Positions 63,266 through 63,408 of a stretch of DNA of 64,000 nucleotides are shown here, one piece after another. The position numbers and the translations under genes are program-made. How positions within the stretch are numbered: the first letter of the stretch is position 1; each line of letters opens with the position of its first letter. Below the pieces are notes generated by a model that made no database searches, was not told where the DNA came from, and worked only from the letters and a program-made list of their open reading frames with translations. The stretch is from Escherichia coli (lineage in GTDB: Bacteria > Pseudomonadota > Gammaproteobacteria > Enterobacterales > Enterobacteriaceae): NCBI RefSeq assembly GCF_050320075.1, contig NZ_CP190018.1; one strand, given 5' to 3'.

Positions 63266-63408
63266 TAATCCGAACACTGTCTGTTGTTCACTTTTTCAGG
63301 CGTCAGGCCCCCTTTCTGATGATGAAGCCTGACGCCATATTACCGGAGATATGACAGAGTGAAGATCAATATCACTCCCCTGTTAAAAGATTCTTGTCGT
63401 CTCAGGTA

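Follow-up and report, generated by a model that had tools for sequence, protein, structure and literature searches.

Rho-dependent transcripts of Escherichia coli have steady-state 3' ends that lie just after stable stem-loops (Dar and Sorek, PMC6061677). These stem-loops have reduced U, no upstream A-tract and a mild downstream enrichment of C over G, and their stem and loop lengths resemble those of intrinsic terminators. REP elements account for only 24% of them, and the tails at such ends are trimmed back by PNPase and RNase II (PMC6061677). A second class relevant here comprises the terminators of convergent genes which are neither intrinsic-like nor Rho-dependent, and in which the RNA hairpin makes polymerases pause and so sets the place where they collide (bioRxiv 10.1101/2022.10.23.513370). 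Here, we compare with these classes a GC-rich hairpin found between rclC and an aldo/keto reductase gene of E. coli, near the end of a stretch of 64,000 nucleotides (the 64-kb window, or simply the window). [quoted passage not shown]

The end of the stretch is 100% identical to E. coli O157:H7, and in the RefSeq annotation of this identical stretch rclA, rclB and rclC lie on the + strand. The convergent spacer between rclC and the reductase is 159 nt long; the hairpin starts 34 nt past the rclC stop and is separated by 89 nt from the stop codon of the reductase (63425-63427, - strand). The sequence-only reading had described a perfect 10-bp inverted repeat with an 18-nt loop at 63299-63336 in this spacer, and both the sequence and a repeat finder confirmed it: the arms are 100% complementary, with 8 G/C per arm. 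Across E. coli we identified two deeply diverged spacer haplotypes, M (the main haplotype, roughly 4,840 genomes) and D (defined by a D-type loop, 176 genomes). The features of the locus are as follows.

62672..63265, + strand: rclC coding sequence (RefSeq annotation of the identical O157:H7 locus)
63284..63298, + strand: conserved 5' flank TTGTTCACTTTTTCA, which includes the T-run 63292-63296; the sole inter-haplotype change is T>G at 63295
63299..63308, no strand assigned: left arm GGCGTCAGGC (sequence and repeat finder)
63309..63326, no strand assigned: loop, 18 nt in the main haplotype (CCCCTTTCTGATGATGAA) and 20 nt in the D haplotype (TTTCCTTGCTAATGGGTGAA) (allele alignment)
63327..63336, no strand assigned: right arm GCCTGACGCC, invariant in 12/12 sampled alleles
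63337..63344, + strand: conserved 3' flank ATATTACC, invariant in 12/12 sampled alleles
63377..63576, + strand: C-rich, G-poor stretch antisense to the reductase, a candidate rut-like region for Rho on rclABC read-through (C/G ratio)
63408..63439, no strand assigned: AT-rich palindrome centred on the reductase stop codon, outside the conserved element (comparison feature)
63425..64000, - strand: aldo/keto reductase gene, 3' part, continuing beyond the window end (RefSeq annotation of the identical O157:H7 locus)

In K-12 MG1655 the hairpin lies at about 317,655-317,692, between rclC and ykgQ, a 129-nt reductase remnant, and the K-12 RefSeq table, which would include repeat features, has no feature of any kind annotated at 317568-317725. 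An AtoC site at ykgQ that surfaced as a literature match was set aside, as it belongs to the K-12 ykgA-ykgQ junction and not to the rclC/reductase hairpin. The rclC/reductase junction is also an insertion-sequence hot spot. In strain LB858871 an IS1 lies within the hairpin loop; in YSP8-1 an IS1 starts a few nucleotides past the rclC stop and everything through ecpR is deleted; and at the K-12 junction an IS3 is accompanied by a deletion that left only the remnants ykgQ and ykgA.

The hairpin does not have the form of a standard terminator, as the sequence-only reading had stated: the loop is long, the T-run (TTTTT at 63292-63296) precedes the repeat rather than following it, again as first described, and a downstream U-tract is absent on both strands. 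The 8 nt past the hairpin read AUAUUACC on the + strand (3 U) and UGAAAAAG on the - strand (1 U), and there is no A-tract upstream of it. Intrinsic terminators have loops of about 3-8 nt; here the loop is 18 nt, or 12 nt on the - strand after extension of the stem by G.U pairing. A consensus terminator scan of 63000-64000 gave 0 terminator-like sites. A permissive search of 62000-64000 with Rfam covariance models returned chance eukaryotic matches only, none of them overlapping 63299-63336 even at E <= 10.

These observations also bear on the idea that the hairpin is a weak, non-canonical intrinsic terminator of rclABC which uses the A/U-rich AUAUUA tract after the stem. A GC-rich 10-bp stem 34 nt past a stop codon would suit such a terminator, as would the invariance of the 8 nt after the stem in all 12 sampled alleles, and the D allele is more terminator-like on the + strand, where it forms a 16-pair stem with one bulge and a 7-nt loop (-26.9 kcal/mol). 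Against it, the tract has only 3 U in its first 8 nt, the loop of the main allele is 18 nt, and the consensus scan rejected the site. Furthermore, the 22-nt block that is identical between haplotypes is not longer than expected at 80% haplotype identity (P about 0.2, an estimate). We regard a weak intrinsic terminator as very unlikely.

As an RNA structure, the hairpin stands out against its AT-rich surroundings. The 56-nt window around it folds at -21.2 kcal/mol (+ strand) and -25.2 kcal/mol (- strand), compared with -8.5 and -12.0 kcal/mol for local shuffles (z = -5.0 and -6.0), and 0/200 local shuffles folded as well. Among all 56-nt windows of the 64 kb it ranks in the top 2.9% on the + strand and in the top 0.44% on the - strand, on which three extra pairs (U.G, U.G and C-G) extend the stem to 13 bp. 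The inverted repeat as such is less exceptional. In dinucleotide shuffles of the 64-kb window, perfect 10-bp inverted repeats whose loop measures 3-30 nt arose 2.2 times on average, and 0.23 times when 8 or more G/C were required in each arm, so the 10-bp repeat alone is not significant. These expectations lend some weight to the possibility that the hairpin is a functionless palindrome, a chance or template-switch inverted repeat in a lineage-specific spacer that has persisted only on account of its short arms and the recent origin of E. coli. We consider this explanation somewhat unlikely, and several of the comparisons below bear on it.

A related question is whether the hairpin is a repeated element. 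Of the 5,426 complete E. coli genomes, 5,057 contain the spacer by a near search with 241 nt, the median genome having it at a single place. A sensitive search with 52 nt centred on the hairpin again located it once per genome, in 5,045 genomes. The share of the 52-nt query recovered was 80% or more in 5,037 genomes (about 93% of 5,426), and the near and sensitive searches together gave a maximum of 2-3 places per E. coli genome. The sequence-only reading had suggested a REP-like element and proposed looking for other copies in the genome; none were found elsewhere in the 5,426 complete E. coli genomes, and with a median of one place per genome and nothing annotated in K-12 the suggestion of a repeated element did not hold. 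Since the hairpin is single copy per genome, it is not a dispersed REP-like repeat, and what it may share with REP elements is a function as a stabiliser of RNA 3' ends.

Within the window, we found no further copies beyond 10-mers with one mismatch, and the one exact extra match, at 45378, sits in long ORFs. Sites matching GGCGTCAGGC with at most one mismatch number 14 in the 64-kb window, against 4.6 expected from shuffles; codon usage seems the likely cause of this excess. In a scan of metagenomes, both arms separated by any loop of 8-32 nt occurred in at least 120 stretches. Once copies of the E. coli locus are set aside, the loops and flanks of these matches were unrelated and mostly came from high-GC contigs, and a metagenomic hairpin family was accordingly rejected. 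That identical arms arise by chance in many unrelated GC-rich contigs is in keeping with a functionless palindrome.

The remaining variants of the repeat idea are a relic of a REP or other mobile element, or a DNA site bound by a protein. The hairpin is extragenic and GC-rich, and the spacer has been struck repeatedly by IS elements. Its arms also share the 6-mer GCCTGA/TCAGGC, but no more, with the Z-type REP consensus. This 6-mer makes up the outer stem of REP elements and the inner stem of the present hairpin, and both the single copy in the genomes searched and the lack of annotation in the K-12 RefSeq spacer argue against a REP relic. For a protein site, the rclR-rclA control region contains no GGCGTC motif, and it is not obvious what an operator placed beyond the ends of two genes would control. 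An RclR operator was rejected for the first of these reasons, and protein binding in a convergent 3' spacer is unlikely. We give a relic or a protein-bound site hardly any credence.

Variation within E. coli is informative about which parts of the spacer are maintained. Mosaics between the haplotypes occur in all combinations, with the D loop found within M flanks, with one D flank and with both, and breakpoints must therefore fall at the conserved arms. The divergence of the haplotypes was measured on one pair, O157 (fully M) and BEC1-S17 (fully D). Between them, 7/33 positions differ in the left flank, 18/88 in the right spacer and 11/20 (55%) in the loop, including a 2-nt indel, compared with 1/20 in the arms. 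The difference between the arms and the rest of the spacer (36/141) has a one-sided Fisher p of 0.03, or 0.08 with the loop excluded. The constraint on the arms suggested by these values is modest, as it comes from one haplotype comparison in a single species, and in this respect p values of 0.03-0.08 sit comfortably with a functionless palindrome. On the other hand, arms with 1/20 positions changed beside a loop diverged by 55% and flanks diverged by 20% are not what a functionless palindrome would lead one to expect. The two haplotypes also differ by 12% over the last 40 nt of rclC and by about 20% over the spacer, and the D haplotype may have introgressed from another Escherichia lineage.

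Three further candidate features were discarded in the same comparison. A small ORF through the loop is excluded, since the 2-nt loop indel between haplotypes leaves no conserved small ORF, and neither an outer pairing of 63282-63298 with 63352-63368 nor a small hairpin around 63359-63380 is kept in the D haplotype.

Among the 12 sampled alleles, the only changes in the left arm are G>A at 63300, seen in the MIN10/SE11 type (78 genomes match that allele at 99% or more), and G>A at 63302 in strain DETEC-S792. Each of them gives a G.U pair in the - strand RNA and an A.C mismatch in the + strand RNA. Double-sided compensatory substitutions in the arms were not seen among the E. coli alleles. Of seven hairpin alleles folded, all seven reach -19.5 kcal/mol or better on both strands, and changes in the loop tend to lengthen the stem, for example C>T at 63309, which adds a pair. 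That every allele remains this stable, with loop changes that extend rather than erode the stem, counts against a functionless palindrome. The stabler strand is the - strand in the main (M) allele and the + strand in the D allele. The G>A bias does not single out a working strand, given a p of about 0.25 for the two substitutions and a D allele that folds better on the + strand.

Since M and D loops are found in all four flank combinations, a more elaborate scheme can be drawn, in which a fixed stem carries two exchangeable loop cassettes as a strand-symmetric junction element, with the loop a recognised determinant under diversifying selection rather than drift. The determinant could act, for example, through an RNA-binding protein or by setting read-through between the chlorine-stress operon and the reductase. 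We treat this scheme, determinant included, as highly speculative.

The sequence-only reading had preferred the adjacent AT-rich hairpin as the shared terminator, a preference that the comparison of alleles does not support. The AT-rich palindrome folds at -14.1 and -13.8 kcal/mol in the O157/K-12 allele, and only there does it form a good palindrome of A-tract, stem and U-tract. The AAGTG variant (B2-type), of which the 50-nt allele is exact in at least 1,102 genomes, reaches -8.2/-6.1 kcal/mol, and the phylogroup-F allele -3.7/-4.8 kcal/mol, so that stability is lost across alleles. In addition, the palindrome overlaps the reductase stop codon and is centred on it, so that ribosomes would translate its 5' arm in the reductase mRNA. 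Uncompensated changes are present in the non-coding arm of the palindrome in the B2- and F-type alleles. Comparison across alleles thus favors the GC hairpin over the AT-rich palindrome as the structure likely to be maintained, and the decay of the neighbouring palindrome over the same lineages argues that the GC hairpin is more than a functionless repeat.

We also compared the locus with other genera. The scan of species-representative genomes returned no Escherichia locus, and the rclC comparison accordingly covers other genera only. The rclC orthologues of Salmonella enterica subsp. arizonae and diarizonae, Shimwellia, Serratia, Citrobacter and Pseudomonas are flanked by other genes and followed by a different sequence that lacks a related hairpin, and no such hairpin accompanies the reductase orthologues of Enterobacter, Salmonella, Klebsiella and Kluyvera (85-86% identical) or of one metagenome sequence (89%). 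We therefore assign the hairpin to the rclC/reductase junction, which is specific to E. coli. Its lack of an orthologue beside either gene in the other genera compared fits a functionless palindrome, as does the fact that IS1 insertion or deletion has split or removed it in some strains in which the operon is apparently retained. In Salmonella enterica subsp. arizonae, a canonical terminator (a GC stem followed by TTTTTT) starts 29 nt past the rclC stop, in the same relative position after rclC as the E. coli hairpin at 34 nt. The placement of the E. coli hairpin, where rclC is otherwise without any 3' structure, speaks against its being functionless.

A second GC hairpin without a U-tract was observed in the rclA-rclB spacer at 62326-62353, starting 11 nt past the rclA stop. 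It consists of AGACGCCAGAA-caaata-TTCTGGCGTCT, a perfect 11-bp stem, followed by CAGAGAAAAG, and does not vary among 9 E. coli loci. Salmonella arizonae and diarizonae share the core of this hairpin (CGCCAG...CTGGCGTCT.A.AGAAAAG), again upstream of rclB, and have in addition a canonical terminator after rclA. Because it is conserved across genera, this hairpin would be a better candidate for a functional element than the rclC hairpin, potentially in 5' control of rclB or as an intra-operon mRNA stabiliser.

Returning to the 3'-end stem-loop, the rclC hairpin has the properties by which Rho-type ends are recognised: a stable stem-loop, no U-rich tail, no upstream A-tract and an excess of C over G downstream. 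On the + strand, 63377-63576, beginning 40 nt downstream of the hairpin, has C/G ratios of 1.6-2.2 in 80-nt windows, which compare with a 95th percentile of 1.76 and a 99th percentile of 2.22 for 80-nt windows of the whole 64 kb. On the - strand, 63218-63139, at 80-160 nt downstream of the hairpin, has a C/G ratio of 1.8.

From these features we infer all the transcript-level steps of the stem-loop model. As rclABC has no canonical terminator in E. coli, transcription would run past the hairpin into the reductase gene in the antisense direction. The antisense RNA would be untranslated as well as C-rich and G-poor, and for this reason Rho is proposed to stop transcription there diffusely. The 3'-to-5' exonucleases PNPase and RNase II would then trim the tail to the foot of the hairpin, near 63337-63340, which in K-12 would put the trimmed rclABC 3' end at about 317,651-317,654 on the minus strand. 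The 3' end of the trimmed rclABC mRNA would be expected within 63337..63344. Because the arms are a perfect palindrome, the same stem would form in the reductase transcript and could protect the reductase mRNA likewise.

Expression of rclABC occurs mainly under chlorine or hypothiocyanite stress. Since the operon is stress-induced, the absence of a mapped 3' end is uninformative rather than negative. Published 3'-end and transcript-map supplements have no entry that we could find for the rclC/reductase hairpin, and the Term-seq tables of Adams et al. 2021, from conditions that do not induce the operon, list no 3' end at K-12 3176xx (PMC7815308). The same study reports a bicyclomycin-sensitive (Rho-dependent) site at K-12 318344(-), inside rclB (PMC7815308, supplementary file 2). 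This site corresponds to about position 62647 of the window, 13 nt inside the 3' end of rclB and just before rclC, and is the only bicyclomycin-sensitive site listed nearby.

If the stem-loop model is correct, the hairpin marks the end of the mRNA for reactive-chlorine and hypothiocyanite resistance encoded by rclABC in E. coli, and would explain how an operon without a recognisable terminator has a stable 3' end. It would also help in annotating the locus and in designing rcl reporters or deletions that retain the native 3' end.

The position between convergent genes raises the further possibility of a bidirectional terminator, in which the hairpin pauses polymerases arriving from both sides and so fixes the point of head-on collision and termination independently of Rho. 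A perfect palindrome that forms in both transcripts and is unlike an intrinsic terminator would be suited to this role, and the hairpin fits the description of that class (bioRxiv 10.1101/2022.10.23.513370). However, both genes are conditionally or weakly expressed, and polymerase collisions should therefore be rare. The hairpin also persists in K-12 and in SE11-type strains, in which the reductase gene is only a promoter-less 129-nt remnant, a persistence that counts in favor of the 3'-end stem-loop. For these reasons, we think a bidirectional terminator is unlikely.

In comparison with known systems, the hairpin resembles REP elements and BIMEs in being an extragenic, GC-rich palindrome that could block 3' exonucleases, but it is single copy, has nothing annotated in K-12 and differs from them in stem topology and sequence. 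It shares with intrinsic (Rho-independent) terminators, such as the true terminator of S. arizonae rclC, a GC-rich stem shortly past the stop codon, and differs from them in its T-run, which lies on the wrong side, in the absence of a U-tract from both strands and in its loop of 18 nt instead of 3-8 nt. The bidirectional terminators of Ju et al. 2019, cited in a later preprint (bioRxiv 10.1101/2022.10.23.513370), are similar in lying at a convergent junction, in having a hairpin on both strands and in not being intrinsic-like; here, the partner gene is absent or truncated in many hairpin-bearing strains. The Rho-dependent 3' stem-loops (PMC6061677) are alike in having a stable stem-loop past the stop, no U-tail or A-tract, an excess of C over G downstream and no REP identity; the present hairpin has a much longer loop (18 nt). 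On this reading, the hairpin would add one example to a well-described class and open no new question. We would file it as a new and so far unannotated case of a familiar type, the 3' stem-loop that lacks a U-tract, located where two genes converge.
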